Notes under the pieces: generated by a model
Told to the model about the DNA's origin: nothing
What the model saw: only the letters and a program-made list of their open reading frames with translations
The model's database searches: none
In this document: positions 31-32,626 of the stretch, piece by piece
Layout of the letters: each line of letters starts with the position of its first letter
Numbering within the stretch: the stretch's first letter is position 1
Virus record (IMG/VR): IMGVR_UViG_2548876950_000007
Reading direction: 5' to 3' (one strand)
Length of the DNA: 39,531 bases
Source of the DNA: a virus
Lineage: Duplodnaviria > Heunggongvirae > Uroviricota > Caudoviricetes
Program-made: the position numbers and the translations under genes

Positions 31-56
31 TGTGCCAAGTTCTCTTAAACCAAGGT
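31..56. other. cix-type crossover site for the Cin invertase (26 bp, two 12-bp half-sites around a central AA)
   Basis: ttctcttaaacc-AA-ggtttaggattg fits the hix/gix/cix half-site pattern (TT.TC.TAAACC) and abuts the 3' end of cin; the window starts just inside the presumed invertible segment. Confidence 0.5.
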
Positions 57-617
57 TTAGGATTGAAATGATGACGCCGGAAACTTCTTATAAAGCGTGG
101 AAACAGCCACATCATAGATGATTGCAACCTGCTTACGGGGGATGCCCTTCTCGAGCAATCGCCGCATTTGCTGCCATGTTTCTTCTTGGTATTTAGGCCG
201 ACGCCCACCTATACGACCTTCTGCGCGAGCTGCATCAAGTCCAGCGCGTGTACGTTCAACGATAAGCTCACGTTCCATTTCTGCCAGCGCCCCCATTACG
301 TGAAAGAAAAAGCGCCCCATTGGTGTACTGGTGTCGATGGAGTCAGTGAGACTCCGGAAGTTAATGCCTCTGTCACGCAGCTCTTCCACCAGCACAACTA
401 AGTGACGCATGCTGCGCCCAAGACGATCTAACTTCCATACGACTAGGGTGTCACCTCTGGAAAGCATACGGAGAACCTTTTTTAACCCAGGGCGTTCAGC
501 CTTTTTGCCGCTCGCCTTGTCCTCAAAAATTAGCTCACATCCTGCGCTTTCAAGGGCATTTCGTTGTAAAGCAGTGTTTTGTTCATTTGTTGATACGCGT
601 ACATAGCCAATTAACAT
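57..617 (-). CDS. cin: serine-recombinase DNA invertase Cin (186 aa)
   Basis: N-terminal MLIGYVRVSTNEQ...LDRLGRS resolvase/invertase catalytic domain and C-terminal HTH; Hin/Gin/Cin family; size matches P1 Cin. Confidence 0.9.
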   Translation of the reverse strand: MLIGYVRVSTNEQNTALQRNALESAGCELIFEDKASGKKAERPGLKKVLRMLSRGDTLVVWKLDRLGRSMRHLVVLVEELRDRGINFRSLTDSIDTSTPMGRFFFHVMGALAEMERELIVERTRAGLDAARAEGRIGGRRPKYQEETWQQMRRLLEKGIPRKQVAIIYDVAVSTLYKKFPASSFQS

Positions 618-24423: not shown

Positions 24424-24735
24424 TTATTTCATCATGGAAGCTGTTAACGCTTTGGACCTTGCTGAATTGATTGAGAGGGCTTTGTCAACATGCCCCAAAA
24501 ATTCGCCAAACTCAGACATCACTTTAGCAAAACCGCGCCGTGCTTCTTCCTCGGTGGCATTCATCACGAAATGTTCAGCACCACGCATACTTTTGACAGG
24601 GAACGCAACGGATATTGAATCAATATCAGGCATTCTATCGCTCAGCTTTACAGTGACAATGACGGCTGGCGACTGAATATTAGTGCTTACAGACAGCACT
24701 ACATATTTTCCGTCGATGTTGAAATCCTTTCTCAT
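24424..24735 (-). CDS. hypothetical protein (103 aa) downstream of cre; possibly cra-like
   Basis: ORF with a GGTGA SD; C1 operator at 24752-24768 immediately upstream. Confidence 0.45.
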   Translation of the reverse strand: MRKDFNIDGKYVVLSVSTNIQSPAVIVTVKLSDRMPDIDSISVAFPVKSMRGAEHFVMNATEEEARRGFAKVMSEFGEFLGHVDKALSINSARSKALTASMMK

Positions 24736-24785: not shown

Positions 24786-25817
24786 CTAATCGCCATCTTC
24801 CAGCAGGCGCACCATTGCCCCTGTTTCACTATCCAGGTTACGGATATAGTTCATGACAATATTTACGTTGGTCCAGCCACCAGCTTGCATGATCTCCGGT
24901 ATTGAAACTCCGGCACGGGCCATATCTCGCGCGGCTCCGACACGGGCACTGTGTCCAGACCAGGCCAGGTACCTCTGGCCAGAGTCATCCTTAGCCCCGT
25001 AAATCAATCGGTGAGTTGCTTCAAAAATCCCTTCCAGGGCGCGAGTTGATAGCTGGCTGGTGGGTGATGGCGAGGCAACACCATTTTTTCTGACCCGGCA
25101 AAACAAGTAGTTATTCGGATCATCAGCCACACCAGAGACAGAAATCCATCGCTCGACCAGTTTAGTTACCCCTAGGCTAAGTGCCTTCTCTACACCTGCG
25201 GTGCTAACCAGCGTTTTCGTTCTGCCAATATGGATTAACATTCTCCCACCGTCAGTACGTGAGATATCTTTAACCCTGATCCTGGCAATTTCGACTATAC
25301 GTAACAGGGTGTTATAAGCAATCCCCAGAAATGCCAGATTACGTATATCCTGGCAGCGATCGCTATTTTCCATGAGTGAACGAACCTGGTCGAAATCAGT
25401 GCGTTCGAACGCTAGTGCCTGTTTTGCACGTTCACCGGCATCAACGTTTTCTTTTCGGATCCGCCGCATAACCAGTGAAACAGCATTGCTGTCACTTGGT
25501 CGCGGCAGCCCGGACCGACGATGAAGCATGTTTAGCTGGCCCAAATGTTGCTGGATAGTTTTTACTGCCAGACCGCGCGCCTGAAGATATAGAAGATAAT
25601 CGCGAACATCTTCAGGTTCTGCCGGAAACCATTTCCGGTTATTCAACTTGCACCATGCCGCCCATGACCGGCAAACGGACAGAAGCATTTTCCAGGTATG
25701 CTCAGAAAACGCCTGGCGATCCCTGAACATATCCATCAGGTTCTTGCGAACCTCATCACTCGTTGCATCGACCGGCAATGCAGGCAAATTTTGGTGAACG
25801 GTTAACGAATTAGTCAT
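24786..25817 (-). CDS. cre: Cre tyrosine recombinase (343 aa)
   Basis: Near-identical to P1 Cre along its length; differences at residues 2-4 and a few internal positions. Confidence 0.97.
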   Translation of the reverse strand: MTNSLTVHQNLPALPVDATSDEVRKNLMDMFRDRQAFSEHTWKMLLSVCRSWAAWCKLNNRKWFPAEPEDVRDYLLYLQARGLAVKTIQQHLGQLNMLHRRSGLPRPSDSNAVSLVMRRIRKENVDAGERAKQALAFERTDFDQVRSLMENSDRCQDIRNLAFLGIAYNTLLRIVEIARIRVKDISRTDGGRMLIHIGRTKTLVSTAGVEKALSLGVTKLVERWISVSGVADDPNNYLFCRVRKNGVASPSPTSQLSTRALEGIFEATHRLIYGAKDDSGQRYLAWSGHSARVGAARDMARAGVSIPEIMQAGGWTNVNIVMNYIRNLDSETGAMVRLLEDGD

Positions 25818-26209
25818 TTATTATGCGTAATTTTAACAGTTAAGCCTTGTTCATGAAGTATCTCATCAATAATTCGAATCACATCCCCTGGTAGATCATC
25901 GTTCTCGAAATATCTGTGATCGGGGATTTCTACAGTGATTGGGGTTGCTGCTTTATGCAAAATCCGAACAATCTTTTTTTCTTTTTTGCATGTTGCATAT
26001 TCAGCCTCTTCGATATCTATCCAGCTCGCACCATCAAATTGCTGGTAAACCCGAGTGTATAGTAAGCGGTTTCGCTTTACTTCTTCTGCTAACTCCCAAA
26101 TTGCAACAGCCATAGCACGTTCATTTTCATTCGTTCCAGGGTTAGCAGCTTTTTGTTTTGCGTCGTTCAGTAAGGCGTTTACCTTGGCATCTGTCAGGCC
26201 ATTAAACAT
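25814..26209 (-). CDS. hypothetical protein (131 aa), translationally coupled to cre
   Basis: Stop TGA overlaps the cre ATG (ATGA); own SD GAGGTGATGA. Confidence 0.5.
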   Translation of the reverse strand: MFNGLTDAKVNALLNDAKQKAANPGTNENERAMAVAIWELAEEVKRNRLLYTRVYQQFDGASWIDIEEAEYATCKKEKKIVRILHKAATPITVEIPDHRYFENDDLPGDVIRIIDEILHEQGLTVKITHNK

Positions 26210-26228
26210 TCATCACCTCATAATCAAG

Positions 26229-26450
26229 TTAAATTATTGTTTTCAGCAGAGTGTACAGGATCGGCTCTGCCTTTACCTGGTTATGGTTCTCGTCATAGAA
26301 ACGCCAGCGACCGCGCGTGCGTTCTATTTTCTCTTCACCGCGAGATAATGACAGTTGGTAACTATCACGCTCAAAGCCTTTTACCCGCCAGTAACCACGG
26401 TTTTTCTCAAGCTCAAGATGAGTGGACACTTTAGCAGCTGAATATCCCAT
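26229..26450 (-). CDS. hypothetical basic protein (73 aa), first gene of the cre operon
   Basis: ATG with SD GAGGTGAAAA; 19 nt upstream of the 131-aa gene. Confidence 0.45.
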   Translation of the reverse strand: MGYSAAKVSTHLELEKNRGYWRVKGFERDSYQLSLSRGEEKIERTRGRWRFYDENHNQVKAEPILYTLLKTII

Positions 26451-26482
26451 TTTTCACCTCTGATTGATTGGTGGTGCTAAGT

Positions 26483-26541
26483 GCGCTACGCGAAATCTGT
26501 AGGACTAACACCGCCAACTTTTCACAGATTTTACGTAGCGC
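26483..26541. repeat. imperfect 18-bp inverted repeat with a 24-bp spacer upstream of the cre operon
   Basis: gcgctacgcgaaatctgt (26483-26500) pairs with acagattttacgtagcgc (26525-26541), 16/18. Confidence 0.5.
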
Positions 26542-26547
26542 AACCTT

Positions 26548-26567
26548 GATCAAATGATCAAGTGATC
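26548..26567. promoter_or_regulatory. cluster of three GATC (Dam) sites in the cre-proximal regulatory region
   Basis: GATC at 26548, 26556 and 26564 plus one at 26617; P1 cre promoters are reported to be Dam-sensitive (from memory). Confidence 0.4.
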
Positions 26568-26639
26568 ACTATTTGACCTGATAAGGTATTGAACTGTATG
26601 GATTTACAGGTAAATTGATCATGTTCAATAACCCTTAAG

Positions 26640-26673
26640 ATAACTTCGTATAATGTATGCTATACGAAGTTAT
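26640..26673. other. loxP: loxP site (34 bp)
   Basis: Exact match ATAACTTCGTATA-ATGTATGC-TATACGAAGTTAT. Confidence 0.98.
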
Positions 26674-27374: not shown

Positions 27375-28226
27375 ATGATAAATTATGTCTACGGCGAACA
27401 ACTGTACCAGGAGTTCGTCAGCTTCAGGGATCTCTTTCTAAAAAAAGCTGTTGCACGCGCCCAACACGTTGATACAGCCAGCGACGGTCGTCCTGTACGC
27501 CCGGTTGTCGTTCTACCGTTCAAAGAAACTGACAGCATTCAGGCTGAAATTGATAAATGGACTTTAATGGCGCGGGAACTGGAACAGTACCCAGACCTCA
27601 ATATCCCAAAGACTATTTTATATCCAGTGCCTAACATCCTTCGCGGTGTGCGTAAGGTTACAACTTATCAGACAGAGGCTGTGAACAGCGTCAACATGAC
27701 CGCTGGCCGCATTATTCATCTGATTGATAAGGACATTCGCATCCAAAAAAGCGCGGGGATCAATGAGCACAGTGCGAAATACATAGAGAACCTGGAAGCA
27801 ACAAAAGAGCTAATGAAGCAGTACCCGGAGGATGAAAAATTCCGTATGCGCGTACACGGCTTTAGCGAAACAATGCTGCGCGTCCACTACATTTCCAGTA
27901 GCCCTAACTACAATGATGGTAAATCAGTTAGTTACCATGTGCCACTGTGTGGCGTGTTTATCTGCGATGAAACTCTCCGTGATGGAATTATCATCAACGG
28001 TGAATTCGAAAAAGCAAAATTTAGCCTTTATGACTCTATAGATCCGATCATCTGCGACCGCTGGCCGCAGGCAAAAATATATCGCCTGGCAGATATTGAA
28101 AATGTAAAAAAACAAATTGCCATCACTCGCGAAGAGAAAAAGGTCAAATCAGCCGCATCAGTTACGCGCAGCCGTAAAACCAAGAAGGGGCAGCCAGTAA
28201 ACGACAACCCCGAAAGCGCGCAATAA
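27375..28226 (+). CDS. c1: C1 repressor of lysis (283 aa)
   Basis: Matches P1 C1 in length and sequence; GGAGGAGG SD. Confidence 0.95.
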   Translation: MINYVYGEQLYQEFVSFRDLFLKKAVARAQHVDTASDGRPVRPVVVLPFKETDSIQAEIDKWTLMARELEQYPDLNIPKTILYPVPNILRGVRKVTTYQTEAVNSVNMTAGRIIHLIDKDIRIQKSAGINEHSAKYIENLEATKELMKQYPEDEKFRMRVHGFSETMLRVHYISSSPNYNDGKSVSYHVPLCGVFICDETLRDGIIINGEFEKAKFSLYDSIDPIICDRWPQAKIYRLADIENVKKQIAITREEKKVKSAASVTRSRKTKKGQPVNDNPESAQ

Positions 28227-28258: not shown

Positions 28259-29371
28259 TTATTCAGCCGCCACCGGTTTTAACAAGCCAGCATCGAGCAG
28301 TTTACGCGTCAACCACTGCTGGCCTTTACCCGTTAATTGAGGCGTCAACCGTATCTGGTAGCCATCTTCATCATCCAGCACCACTTCTTTCACCGTGAAA
28401 TACCCCGCGTTGATGTACTGCTGGAACGGCACATTTTTACGTCCACCGGACGCTATCAGGATGCCGTTCTCCCGTAACCAGACAAACAGCGCGTTTTGCT
28501 TAAGTCCAACAACCTTTGCAAAATTCCCAATCAGGATCCCTTTAGCTACTGATACCCGGTCGGCAAAATCGACTTTAGGAGCGGCGGCCACCAGCTGCTG
28601 ATTTAGCTGGTGGGCTTTCTGTTCCAGAAGCTGCTTTTGTTCAGCCAGTTCGGCAGCCAGGCGCAGAGCTTCTGGAAGCGTCTGGGGGATTGCAACCGGT
28701 TGCTGTTCTTTTTGCCGGAAGTAGCTGTCTTCCAGTTTTTCAAAGAATGCCCATGCTTCATTTGTGTCCACGATCTTAGACATGCGTGCAGCGCCGCGCT
28801 CTGTCCAGAGTGTAAGGCTTCTGGCGTTCTTACCAACAGAGTAACTTCCGGTTACTCTGTTCTTAAATTCTCTTAATTTTAAACCAGTTAGAAGAAAGTA
28901 ATGCTTACCTTCTTCAAAGCGGTCAAGGTTGCGAGACAAATTGTTGCGAATATTGGCTTCATCGACCCCATACCCTCTAGCAAGAGTTTCGGTTGTCACG
29001 ACACGTACTCCCTGCCATTCCAGAACGGGAATTTCATCCGGCTGATTCTGAACAACCACCAGTTCCGATTCCTGAACTGAAGGTGCATAAATTTTTTCTG
29101 ATTTAACGTTAGTTGCTTTCATTCTGTGTGCCTCCTTGCGTGCTTCGGCTGCGACGGTTGCGTAATTCAGATGACCCTGTTCGAGCAGGTATTCACGGAT
29201 ATCGGTTAGCAGAATGCGGTGAACCGCGTGTTTGTCCTTTCTCCGGTAAAGTTGTTTGGTGATCATGAAGTAGTTGGCAATAACGCCCGGTATATCCCTG
29301 GTATTGATACAGGCAGTGTGCTGTTCAATTGCCTCGATCATCTCTTCACGGGTGACTAATGACGTTCTCAT
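28259..29371 (-). CDS. ant: antirepressor Ant1 (370 aa) with an internal in-frame Ant2 start at Met84
   Basis: Bro-N/ORF6N-like N-terminal domain and KilA-C-like C-terminal domain; internal ATG (Met84) preceded by AAGGAGG; sizes fit the P1 Ant1/Ant2 pair of about 42 and 32 kDa. Confidence 0.7.
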   Translation of the reverse strand: MRTSLVTREEMIEAIEQHTACINTRDIPGVIANYFMITKQLYRRKDKHAVHRILLTDIREYLLEQGHLNYATVAAEARKEAHRMKATNVKSEKIYAPSVQESELVVVQNQPDEIPVLEWQGVRVVTTETLARGYGVDEANIRNNLSRNLDRFEEGKHYFLLTGLKLREFKNRVTGSYSVGKNARSLTLWTERGAARMSKIVDTNEAWAFFEKLEDSYFRQKEQQPVAIPQTLPEALRLAAELAEQKQLLEQKAHQLNQQLVAAAPKVDFADRVSVAKGILIGNFAKVVGLKQNALFVWLRENGILIASGGRKNVPFQQYINAGYFTVKEVVLDDEDGYQIRLTPQLTGKGQQWLTRKLLDAGLLKPVAAE

Positions 29372-29589
29372 AGTCCCTCCTGAGCAGAAGCGTTAACAGG
29401 GAGGCACCAGTAACTGAGAGAATTGCGCGAATCGGTAGAAAAGCGGGCAGAGAAAATACAGGGAGCATCCGGAAGCTGAGAACGTGCCTCATCTTCTGTC
29501 GGTGCAATAACAAAGTGATAGTGACGTTTTTGGCAGGAGTAAAAGCGCCAGATAAATTCAGGATGAGCAGGGGTAGGGATAGTAGCCAC
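29368..29589 (-). CDS. icd: Icd-like small protein (73 aa), GTG start, translationally coupled to ant
   Basis: AGGAGG SD (29598-29603); stop TGA overlaps the ant ATG (ATGA). Confidence 0.5.
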   Translation of the reverse strand: MATIPTPAHPEFIWRFYSCQKRHYHFVIAPTEDEARSQLPDAPCIFSARFSTDSRNSLSYWCLPVNASAQEGL

Positions 29590-29639
29590 AATGGCAGCCT
29601 CCTTTTGCTAATTTAAGGAGCTACCGCGTGAGGTCTCAA

Positions 29640-29700
29640 TCTCAATGGCGGTAGCACTGACTGGGTTGAGACTACCGGCGCAAAAGGGAACCGGCCTGCC
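29640..29700 (-). ncRNA. c4: candidate c4-type antisense RNA carrying elements complementary to the icd leader
   Basis: Minus-strand gtctcaa (29666-29672) and gctaccgc (29648-29655) are complementary to ttgagac (29633-29639) and gcggtagc (29620-29627) just upstream of the icd SD. Confidence 0.35.
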
Positions 29701-29773
29701 TTTCGGCAGCCCAGCCAGCACTACCATTGATCTCTGAGCTAAACGCTACGTATGGCTGTGCGATGGCATGACA

Positions 29774-29797
29774 CAAAAAAAGACGCTTTTGGCGTCT
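29774..29797 (-). terminator. strong intrinsic terminator downstream of pacB
   Basis: agacgcc-aaa-ggcgtct followed by T7 on the minus strand. Confidence 0.7.
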
Positions 29798-29928
29798 GTG
29801 TCGCCTTTTGCATTATCCGGGGTCTCAATCCCGGCACCCGTTTTACTGAGGTGCCTGATAAGCATAAACCGAAAATGCCTCAAGGCGCAAGAGGTCAGGT
29901 TCAATGTAACATCGGTAGCTAAAAAACA

Positions 29929-29948: not shown

Positions 29949-31433
29949 TCATTCATTAAGCCATGCCAGAGCTTCATCAACCTGCGCTTCGTCTTCGACG
30001 CTAAGCACTTCATCCTGGGGAACATAATCCGCCAGCATAGCGAAACAATATGTATCCCAATGGTCTGGTGAGTGCAGGTTGAGTTTTTTCTTCATATCCT
30101 CCTTACTCATCACCTTCCATTGACCTGCGGAGTTAATCCCTACAGGGATTTTCGACGCTTCCTCAATAGTTTCATTACCCTTATCCAGTCTCATACGACC
30201 AGATTTTACGGCCTCTGCGGCTTGAACGTTGGCATAAGCACGTTTATCAAAGTACAGGCTCTTATCTTCACGGCTATGCATCTTTTTACCCCAGCGTATA
30301 CGCTGTACGGTAATACCATAATACTCGTACATCAGATCCGCTGTTGCTTTACCCAGGCCATCGCCATCTATCGCTATGGTGATATTGGGGAATCGCTCAG
30401 GATTACATTCTGCGAAAATTTTGGCGGCAAGCTGCGTTTCTGTAACGTCTGTGTATTCCAGCATTCGATAGTTGATTACACGGCGTTTATTTCGCTGGCC
30501 GGACACCATCATGATATTGATAACGGACTTATCCCGTCCCGTACCACCAGCAACGTCCACACATGCAAGCCAGCCCCATCCTTTTGCAATCTTGACTTTC
30601 CGCCGCGTTGCACGTTCAACCTCATCACGTCCAAGAAGGAAGCCATCCTGTGATTTAGGGAATAGGCCGCGTACCTTAATCATGTACATAGGGTTATCAC
30701 GCCCGCCGTACTCCGCCAGCTTCATTTTGATAAATGCTGGCGTTACCAACGGCGATTCCTCACTGTTAAGCGTGATCGCCGTATAAACGCCATCAGGGTT
30801 ACCAGGACGCTTGGCCAGTTTATGGTGTGTATCGTAGAAATAGCCGCTTGGGCGTGTAGGCTGTGACAGCAATAAGATGCGGTTATCCTGTCCGGTAAGA
30901 GCACCGGTGATGATACCGAAAGCTCTATCACTGACACCGGAGGCTTCATCGATAATATACAGAAGATGATCTGCGTGTTCACCGGCGAGAGCTTCTTCAC
31001 TTCCCAGACGAAAGCCCTTCGGTACTACAGTCCATACACCTTTACCAGTAACCTCATAGAAAGCGGTTTCTGTCAGAACAAAATAATCAGCAAGCCATGG
31101 AAAACGGCTGGTGGCAGTAGCCCAGTTTATCTTGATGTACTTGAATATACCGGTCATTACCTGCTGAATTTTGTTCGCAACGATAATGGCGCGGGCACCG
31201 GGATACATGATTATGAACAACATGATCATGATAGAAGTCATGTCTGATTTCCCGGTACCGTGACCAGACGAAACAGATGTCTTGCTACCCTGTTCCTGCA
31301 CAGACTCAATAATCAGATCCTGCTGCCAGGTAGGTGTTTTGCCGAACAAAACATCAGCGGCAGCAATCCAGTCATAACGATATAGCGCCACCAGCTCGCG
31401 CCAACGTGGATCCGTTACGCAACTTCTGGCCAT
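29949..31433 (-). CDS. pacB: PacB, terminase large subunit (494 aa)
   Basis: Matches P1 PacB in size and sequence; ATGA overlap with pacA. Confidence 0.9.
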
Positions 31434-32626
31434 TAATCATCATCCCCGTATAGCTTGCGGGTAACTTCTTCGTCTTCCTCCTCGTCTTCGTCCAGGTCTT
31501 GTTCCAGCCATGGGTCGTTTGATGCACCTTCAGTATCAACATCTCCATAACCGCCTGTATCAACGATATCGGCGATTTCTTCCCTACGCTGCTCAATCCA
31601 CAATGCGGCATCGGCGCGGCGGTTGGCGGCCCGTTCTCGCGCAACTTTGTCCAGATCTTCAAGAGAAGGGCCACCGACGGCTGTTTGCCTTTCCTCATCA
31701 TCGGTATTGGTCTTAGGAGCACGCAGATCGGCTTTGATTTGCTCCAGCATCAGGGGCGGCACTTTTCCGCCATGCGCCTCGATGAATTCAGCTGCTTCCA
31801 GCACTGACCAGTTATTTTCACGCTTTCGTTCGTATGCCAGCTTAACAATGCCAGCTTGCCCCATAGATAAAGCGTGCTTTTCCGCCTCCCGGCTTTCTTT
31901 TCGATAGTTATTCCGGATGCTGTAAATGGTGTTGATCAGGCTGCTTATCTGCGCGGAACAGCTGTTTAGCATGCTCGCGATGCGATATTCAGGCGGAGTC
32001 CCTTCATCATCGTCTTTTTGCTGATCGCGCATTTCCTGCACCAGACGAATACACGTATCCCTGGCGTTCTCCAGCATAAGGAGATGAGAAAGAGACTTTT
32101 CCAGAAGAGTGGTTTCCAGAACATCGGCCCCGGACCGACGCAACATAGCGCGAGCGGCCTTCCGCGCTTCAACGTTATCTATCAGGTAATCGCCAGCTTC
32201 GAATTCAAAGCGTTCACCATCATCATCCAGGGTGTCGCGTTCCAGGCGATCACGTAAGGTCCGGTGGGCGCGGGTGATCACGTCATGATCATCAGAACGA
32301 TCATTTATGCGCTTATTTTGGCGCTTCGCATTCTCGACTGCGGCACTGACAACGGCATTAACCCTTTGTTTTTCCGCTATTTCAGCCGCAATGTGATCAC
32401 CTGCATGTTGATCATTAGAGTGATCAATGATCATGCTTTTTAGTGGCTTCCTGACTGGCTTATTTGGCTTGCGGCTGTCCGCTGTCCTGGTGTCTTCTTT
32501 GAAGGCACGGAGATAACGACGTGCAGTATTAGGGTTAAGATTAAACTCGGCGGCATACTGTGCGATGGTGTAACCACCATCTCGCGCCAGGCGAGCAAAA
32601 TTCTTCTTGTGATCGTCCCAGGTCAC
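31433..32626 (-). CDS. pacA: PacA, terminase small subunit / pac-recognition protein (397 aa)
   Basis: Matches P1 PacA; acidic C-terminus; contains the pac site. Confidence 0.9.
32275..32433. other. pac: pac packaging site: two clusters of TGATCA/CGATCA hexamers with Dam sites
   Basis: Hexamers at 32275, 32286, 32298 and at 32394, 32409, 32421, 32428 (plus 32247), inside the 5' part of pacA. Confidence 0.8.

Follow-up and report, generated by a model that had tools for sequence, protein, structure and literature searches.

A rare 404-bp cassette between cra and cre in the loxP-cra-cre module of a P1-like phage-plasmid

Introduction

Few recombination tools are used as widely as Cre-lox, and its natural operon tends to be regarded as completely described. 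In phage P1 (AF234172) the small gene cra lies between loxP and cre at positions 207..428, 7 nt before cre at 436. The same arrangement is found in P7 and in every P1-like phage record that matched our region, and cra is listed as ORF1 in X03453. Here we analyse the cre region of a 39,531-nt stretch of viral DNA (Caudoviricetes; IMG/VR record IMGVR_UViG_2548876950_000007), which we call the window, and in which a gene for a 131-aa protein, orf131, stands between cra and cre. We consider it probable that the region is an ordinary loxP-cra-cre module of a P1-like phage-plasmid with one accessory cassette, a judgement that covers the whole explanation given below, including the expression, spread and function of the cassette.

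In a CRISPR interference essentiality screen of P1, cra and cre were non-essential, and Sternberg et al. 1986 was cited there for the cre regulatory region (PMC10695390).

Layout of the locus

The locus consists of the following features, where P1 position p corresponds to window position 26657-p.

26640..26673, no strand: loxP, with 13-bp arms and an 8-bp spacer
26229..26450, minus strand: cra, 73 aa, the 'cre-associated' gene of P1 (P1 207..428), with a Shine-Dalgarno (SD) sequence GAGGTGA at 26454-26460
25814..26209, minus strand: orf131, 131 aa, with the SD sequence GAGGTGA at 26213-26219
25818..26228, minus strand: insert segment, 411 nt in place of the 7-nt cra-cre spacer of P1 (net +404 bp), made up of a 19-nt spacer with the SD sequence of orf131 (26213-26219) and the body of orf131
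25814..25817, minus strand: ATGA, in which orf131 stops and cre starts, the cre ATG having no SD sequence
24786..25817, minus strand: cre, 343 aa, product 98.5% identical to P1 Cre, first codons MTNSLTV of the Salmonella-lineage type
25783..26276, minus strand: exchanged block, approximate extent, from ~15 codons before the end of cra, through orf131, to ~10 codons into cre

The three genes cra, orf131 and cre are tightly packed and co-directional on the minus strand, with a gap of 19 nt followed by the 4-nt overlap. An earlier reading of this DNA from its letters (the sequence-only reading) had given 822 nt as the distance from loxP to the cre ATG and had described two open reading frames (ORFs) of 73 and 131 aa with identical GAGGTGA sites, the stop of the longer one lying over the cre ATG. 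All of this was confirmed, and both genes start identically with GAGGTGA, a 3-nt spacer and ATG. The same reading had assumed that P1 has no gene between loxP and cre, which is wrong, as AF234172 contains cra there, and it had called both upstream ORFs unknown. The first of them is P1 cra, so that P1 has one of the two ORFs; orf131 is absent from P1. Furthermore, Cre residues 2-4 had been said to differ from P1. Residues 2 and 4 do (S2T and L4S) and residue 3 is unchanged. In the alignment to P1, small differences reach beyond the insert into the last cra codons and the first cre codons.

The assignment of cra is based on 93% amino acid identity to P1 Cra (AAQ13977), on a match to phrog_804 (E = 2.6e-32, 71 of 72 profile positions) and on its position between loxP and cre, in the orientation of cre. 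The protein is small and basic (pI 9.6), its AlphaFold2 model has a predicted local distance difference test score (pLDDT) of 61, and the gene is the constant partner of cre in the Escherichia, Salmonella, Klebsiella and Pantoea relatives.

Many RefSeq/NCBI records, e.g. NZ_CP012497.1, label Cra as 'creatininase', and one cluster with this label has 633 member sequences. A creatininase is impossible for a 73-aa phage protein and there is no supporting domain; the name looks like a propagated gene-name confusion.

Distribution of the cassette

The 1-kb region matches 704 PLSDB plasmids, 14 of which contain the insert, and a tblastn search of PLSDB with ORF131 returns exactly those 14 plasmids, with the gene adjoining cre in each. 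Among complete E. coli genomes with the locus, 32 out of 699 carry orf131, many of them O111:H8 or other Shiga-toxin strains, and none of the 24 phage records matching the region does. Taken together, orf131 is found in about 2-5% of P1-like elements, a frequency that is not a count of independent events, and always in the order cra-orf131-cre, as in the E. coli locus L003 and the Salmonella-lineage loci L004-L008.

The E. coli junctions, for which a probe was sampled across the 699 records, fall into two states, either empty (401-bp span) or with an additional 404 bp (805-bp span). No other cargo was found in the junctions sampled, and between cra and cre nothing but orf131 was seen inserted. 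The empty site, with cra and cre 7 nt apart, is the common state in the Salmonella and Klebsiella relatives. Moreover, loxP is identical with and without the cassette, and the same site is present in the loci searched from E. coli (L003) and from the Salmonella lineage (L004-L008).

Upstream of cra the genes vary. In some relatives a ~350-aa protein with a UVR motif is encoded there, and in Pantoea an unrelated 143-aa ORF, which has no similarity to ORF131.

The ~350-aa gene (L004 2699-3769; L012 1277-2335; L020-L030 1934-3004) has a stop that overlaps the cra start and is absent from the window and from P1. Its product belongs to a widespread family (242 matches), annotated in some sources as 'UvrB/UvrC motif-containing protein'; the Salmonella protein has no Pfam match.

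Exchange between lineages

In a divergent P1-like lineage of Salmonella the operon reads orf356-cra-orf131-cre, with a Cra of 71 aa and a Cre of 342 aa. Between the window and this lineage the nucleotide identity is 89% for orf131 (dS 0.37-0.46), 70% for cre (dS saturated), 64% for cra and 53% for c8. The block of high similarity, far above its flanks, takes in orf131 together with roughly the last 15 codons of cra and the first 10 of cre. In a comparison inside E. coli, plasmid pO111_2 and the window show zero differences across orf131 and the first 86 nt of cre (pO111_2 positions 436-925 for the block). The empty sites of the Salmonella/Klebsiella lineage show that cre natively begins there with ATGACCAATTCGTTAACCGTT (MTNSLTV). 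Since this start is native to those empty sites and present in the window, these cre codons arrived with the cassette.

Judged by these comparisons, orf131 is a cassette without mobility genes. It spreads by homologous recombination, for which the conserved ends of cra (3') and cre (5') supply the homology, and its exchange is more recent than the divergence of the backbones. The window itself is best described as a different mosaic of P1-like backbones carrying the same cassette as pO111_2.

Two observations on the backbones may be added. The c8 gene (window 24424-24735 compared with L009 1922-2233) differs by 15% of its nucleotides from the pO111_2 allele, beside an identical orf131. The best overall plasmid matches of the window (H109 and H110) are not among the 14 orf131 carriers in PLSDB.

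The ORF131 protein and its gene

ORF131 is a hydrophilic, mildly acidic and probably soluble protein of 131 aa (15.0 kDa, pI 5.6), and its gene has a GC content of 40%, compared with 50% for cre and 48% for the window. It is an ORFan. A search of 5.8 billion clusters found six clusters at 90% identity, all from Escherichia or Salmonella, and an exhaustive phmmer search of 1.84 billion representatives found nothing but the cluster of ORF131 itself, a 63-aa piece of it and long repetitive proteins matched in several short stretches, which look spurious.

The sequence-only reading had proposed profile and structure searches for both small proteins. For ORF131 the only family found is PHROG 20152, a phage protein family of unknown function, which is matched over the full length (E = 3.8e-92, residues 1-131 to profile positions 1-131 of 131). 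There is no significant match to Pfam, NCBIfam, PADLOC or PDB sequence profiles; in PADLOC-DB 2.0 the only defence protein hit is JetC (E = 0.01, 11.7 bits), consistent with coiled-coil noise. BLASTP detects no similarity between ORF131 and Cre. The AlphaFold2 model of ORF131, with a poor pLDDT of 53, suggests at low confidence a helical hairpin at the N-terminus, followed by two short helices and, at the C-terminus, a beta-alpha-beta unit. Foldseek searches of PDB and BFVD with the ORF131 and Cra models gave no match with E below 0.6, and neither the profile nor the Foldseek searches found a DNA-binding domain or fold in either protein. With low pLDDT values and empty fold searches, the structure results for both proteins are uninformative and are not read as pointing to a new fold.

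Five diverged orf131 alleles keep the full-length ORF, and between the lineages dN/dS is 0.12-0.35, with about 0.06-0.13 for residues 1-62 and 91-131 and relaxed values of 0.2-1.0 for residues 63-90. For residues 91-131, the window and L004 are separated by 10 synonymous and 3 non-synonymous changes, over 25 and 98 sites respectively. The layout is one of conserved N- and C-terminal domains with a variable middle (residues 63-90), and orf131 is a real gene under purifying selection. On conservation in relatives, which the sequence-only reading had named as decisive, the picture is thus divided: about 95-98% of the relatives do not have orf131, and where it is present it is under purifying selection.

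ORF131 starts with MFN(G/S)LT and Cre with MTNSLT (window 26189-26209 and 25797-25817), and the Ser4 alleles share five of the first seven residues with Cre. This likeness could be due to chance, to selection on N-terminal codons or to a very old duplication of the cre start.

An origin of orf131 from a duplicated cre start finds no support at the nucleotide level, where the Ser and Leu codons differ.

A literature search returned no mention of WP_000481733, WP_000542341 or the locus tag searched for, and the cra-cre junction is not discussed in the phage-plasmid surveys checked.

The cre control region

The following control features are found between loxP and orf131.

26592..26611, minus strand: LexA box, identical to the P1 annotation at 46..65
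26548..26567, no strand: three Dam (GATC) sites, 8 bp apart, two of which are P1 Dam sites 2 and 3, overlapping the pR1 -35
26528..26553, minus strand: promoter pR1 (P3cre), TTGATC ... TAAAAT, identical to P1 and predicted by identity to the P1 annotation
26482..26542, no strand: inverted repeat with arms of 19 nt at 26482-26500 and 26524-26542, 89% complementary, and a 23-nt spacer
26345..26374, minus strand: promoter pR2 (P2cre), inside cra, -35 TTGAGC (P1 TTGATC), -10 unchanged
26233..26257, minus strand: promoter pR3 (P1cre), cra 3' end, -35 TGTACA kept, -10 ATAAT (P1 ATTAT)

The hexamers of pR1-pR3, the GATC sites and the LexA box stand at their P1 positions, so the P1 cre regulatory region can be recognised in the window, with promoter activity as a prediction. 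All three P1-annotated cre promoters are conserved and lie upstream of orf131; pR3 sits directly upstream of the orf131 ribosome-binding site. The LexA box core CTGTAAATCCATACAG is kept in the Salmonella lineage too.

There are four GATC sites, at 26548, 26556, 26564 and 26617. The last one (26617-26620) is P1 Dam site 1. The site at 26564-26567 is additional to P1, which has GACC there, and the other three are at the same positions in P1. The gain of this GATC is the sole regulatory difference toward more Dam sites, and the substitution in the pR2 -35 removes the GATC that P1 has there. By a rough Poisson estimate, three GATC in 20 bp are not very improbable within 39.5 kb, and the weight of the cluster lies in its conservation and P1 annotation, not in statistics.

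No terminator-like sites were found on the coding strand, no consensus promoter or terminator on the coding strand within the insert, and no Rfam family matched between loxP and cre.

The inverted repeat

The inverted repeat and the Dam cluster of the sequence-only reading both exist, and the same inverted repeat is present in P1. Its arms are conserved at 32 of 34 positions in the Salmonella lineage, where cra and cre are only about 64-70% identical at the nucleotide level, while the inner stem and loop vary at a constant total length of 59 nt (window 26482-26542; L004 2599-2657; L024 1599-1657). Arms conserved this far above background are likely to have some function. The repeat is equally conserved in elements without orf131 and so is not tied to the presence of that gene.

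Folded as RNA, the repeat reaches -31.6 kcal/mol (z = -2.8). The left arm holds the pR1 -10, and transcripts from pR1 would therefore be without the left arm. It seems more plausible that the repeat acts at the DNA level, for example as an operator, than as a hairpin in RNA.

The 25-nt centre of the Salmonella version fits the reverse complement of the window centre better than its direct sequence (14/25 versus 5/25; shuffle p about 2.5e-4). Since no flipped form was seen in 695 E. coli genomes, this inversion of the centre is old and fixed and no active switch. Between the window and pO111_2 the repeat loop differs at 5 positions.

An actively flipping invertible element in E. coli was considered and discarded, as the query with the flipped repeat reached at most about 90% over the full length in the 695 genomes. 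A second Salmonella variant of the repeat (L024) has a different inner stem, GGGG/CCCC.

Proposed expression and function

Transcription of orf131 would take place together with cre from pR1-pR3, at low levels in the prophage plasmid and in the early phase of infection. With all three promoters ahead of orf131 and no terminator-like site following, it is reasonable to assume a cra-orf131-cre transcription unit. In this sense the sequence-only reading, which had made cre the distal gene of a three-gene operon, is plausibly right, as co-directional packing, the lack of a terminator-like site and the upstream promoters all point to it. ORF131 would be translated efficiently from its own strong ribosome-binding site, and Cre would be made by termination-reinitiation at the ATGA overlap, because the cre ATG is not preceded by an SD sequence. 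The cassette moves as described above, with the conserved cra 3' end and cre 5' end as recombination arms.

We favour an accessory role for ORF131 that is unrelated to recombination chemistry, since 95-98% of the relatives, including P1, do without orf131, loxP is the same either way and the Cre alleles found with orf131 are 81% identical to each other. With the same loxP in both states and a Cre that is 98.5% identical to that of P1, Cre-lox works without orf131. ORF131 would then stand outside the Cre-lox mechanism and use the cre operon as a mere expression slot. Most likely it would be an accessory factor of the 'moron' type in phage-host or phage-phage conflict, for example one that modulates the host or acts in exclusion or anti-defence; this final step is guessed from the context and is the weakest of the proposal.

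Several points weigh against this explanation. Homologues of ORF131 outside P1-like elements were found neither in the search of 5.8 billion clusters nor by phmmer, Pfam, NCBIfam, PADLOC and PDB give no functional lead, and the model is poor and without a Foldseek match. Co-transcription and coupling are deduced from the gene anatomy and the P1 annotation. Many carriers belong to a few related lineages of Shiga-toxin-producing E. coli (STEC; O111:H8 and others), and the carrier frequencies are to be read accordingly. Moreover, the exclusive place beside cre and the overlap with the cre ATG fit a role related to Cre equally well.

Such a role is the first alternative. ORF131 may be a dedicated modulator of Cre, acting by inhibition, chaperoning, timing or dosage, which is translationally coupled to Cre and alters when or how efficiently lox recombines. 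It would agree with the finding that in every carrier, in both diverged lineages, orf131 occurs only between cra and cre, with the ATGA overlap that would link Cre synthesis to ORF131 translation, with the first ~10 cre codons travelling with the cassette and with the resemblance of MFN(G/S)LT to MTNSLT. But 95-98% of P1-like elements run Cre-lox without orf131, and the Cre alleles with it, being only 81% identical to each other, show no co-varying change beyond the hitch-hiked residues. The fixed position can be explained by a single insertion followed by spread via the flanking homology. BLASTP sees no similarity to Cre, no DNA-binding or Xis-like domain was detected, and the use of different Ser and Leu codons speaks against a recent duplication behind the N-terminal likeness. 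With an Xis-type protein or recombination directionality factor ORF131 shares the adjacency to the recombinase gene, but it is acidic (pI 5.6), has no helix-turn-helix or Xis profile and is predicted, at low confidence, as a helical hairpin with a beta-alpha-beta unit after it. What backs this alternative is the fixed position and the overlap, both of which are explicable by history alone, and we regard it as rather unlikely. That ORF131 is a coupled natural partner of Cre (inhibitor, chaperone or timing factor) through which lox recombination becomes conditional in some of the P1-like plasmids is, in our estimate, unlikely.

The sequence-only reading had gone further and suggested a distinct regulatory input to Cre expression. 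In its full form this would be a novel three-gene operon, in which two new proteins, the inverted repeat and the Dam cluster form an input to Cre that P1 does not have, with one of the proteins binding the repeat. The gene packing, the shared ribosome-binding sites and the overlap are all real, the repeat arms are conserved at 32 of 34 positions across the lineages, and Cra, which is small, basic and always present, could be an autoregulator. However, cra, the inverted repeat, the Dam sites, the LexA box and the promoters are all in P1 already, and the same control elements are kept in the Salmonella lineage, whose cre and cra are about 64-70% identical to those of the window. The repeat is as well conserved without orf131, and neither protein shows a DNA-binding domain or fold. 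By sequence, the ancestral control region of P1 cre accounts for the repeat, the Dam cluster, the LexA box and the promoters alike; a distinct input therefore falls away as a claim, and the novel operon appears quite unlikely.

It is very improbable that orf131 is a chance or decaying ORF without a functional protein, for which the missing homologues and domains, the low-confidence model and a few truncated variants (P0006, P0007) could be cited against clear purifying selection, a full ORF in five diverged alleles and a strong ribosome-binding site, or that cra and orf131 are a toxin-antitoxin pair, as cra occurs without orf131 in >95% of P1-like elements and no toxin-antitoxin or defence domain is found in Pfam, NCBIfam or PADLOC.

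Significance

The favoured explanation, one accessory cassette in an ordinary P1-like module, makes this locus a modest curiosity, a rare 404-bp cassette exactly between cra and cre and no new regulatory system. The novelty is modest, since the orf131 product is already in RefSeq as a hypothetical protein and in PHROGs. Some wild P1-like plasmids, a minority that often comes from Shiga-toxin E. coli of the O111 type or from related strains, have a conserved extra gene joined to cre. Should ORF131 modulate Cre, it would be the first protein known to do so and a possible on/off tool for Cre. Should it be a conflict protein (anti-defence or exclusion), it would add one more private accessory gene to the phage-plasmid repertoire. 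Under either reading the locus illustrates cleanly how a cassette passes between diverged relatives by flanking homology alone.

Neighbouring regions of the window

The flanking genes keep the P1 order, with c8 (103 aa) and ref (186 aa) after cre and coi (69 aa) and c1 (283 aa) beyond loxP.

Between c1 (27375-28226) and a 494-aa ORF (29949-31433), which we read as pacB, a second immunity-type module is located at 28259-29854 on the minus strand. It contains a 370-aa antirepressor-like ORF, and antirepressors with a KilAC domain are annotated in the matching plasmids. Before this ORF, Rfam matches the C4 antisense RNA (29644-29731, 75 bits) and isrK (29776-29854, 58 bits). The c4/ant (immI) region of P1 is located elsewhere in the P1 genome.

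Eight GATC sites are found within 185 bp (32248-32432), inside a 397-aa ORF (31433-32626, minus strand) taken as pacA. This cluster is presumably pac, the packaging site that is under Dam regulation in P1-like phages.

Comparison with known systems

The closest described system is the loxP-cra-cre region of P1 (AF234172 1-1467; X03453). It agrees with the window in the sequence of loxP, the LexA box, Dam sites 1-3 and pR1, in the location of pR2 and pR3, in the inverted repeat and in the downstream order of c8 and then ref. Unlike P1, the window has 411 nt with orf131 where P1 has the 7-nt cra-cre spacer. The cre start, which in P1 is independent and without an SD sequence, is an ATGA overlap in the window. 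Smaller differences are Cre residues 2 and 4, the extra GATC (26564), the pR2 -35 without a GATC and the pR3 -10 ATAAT.

Plasmid pO111_2 of E. coli O111:H- 11128 (NC_013370) and similar P1-like plasmids of STEC have the same cra-orf131-cre arrangement. In pO111_2 orf131 is 100% identical at the nucleotide level and its product (WP_000481733.1) is annotated as 'hypothetical protein', whereas the backbone differs from the window by 3.4% in cre, by 15% in c8 and at the 5 positions of the repeat loop.

More distant are the plasmids of Salmonella, Klebsiella and Pantoea (L004-L008, L020-L030 and L012), in which cra also stands immediately before a cre homologue. The Salmonella elements L004-L008 and L020-L023 share loxP, the LexA box and the inverted-repeat arms with the window, and some of the Salmonella elements, a minority, have orf131 at this position too. 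In contrast to the window, these plasmids have the ~350-aa UVR-motif gene upstream of cra, the Pantoea element has its unrelated 143-aa ORF there, and the identity of their Cre is no more than 64-81%.

Like phage morons, orf131 is present or absent between collinear genomes, here in two states, its GC content is below that of the flanks (40% versus 48-50%) and its horizontal exchange is faster than that of the backbone. A classical moron comes with a promoter and a terminator of its own; the insert lies downstream of pR1-pR3, and orf131 would borrow the cre promoters and is joined to cre by the overlapping stop and start.

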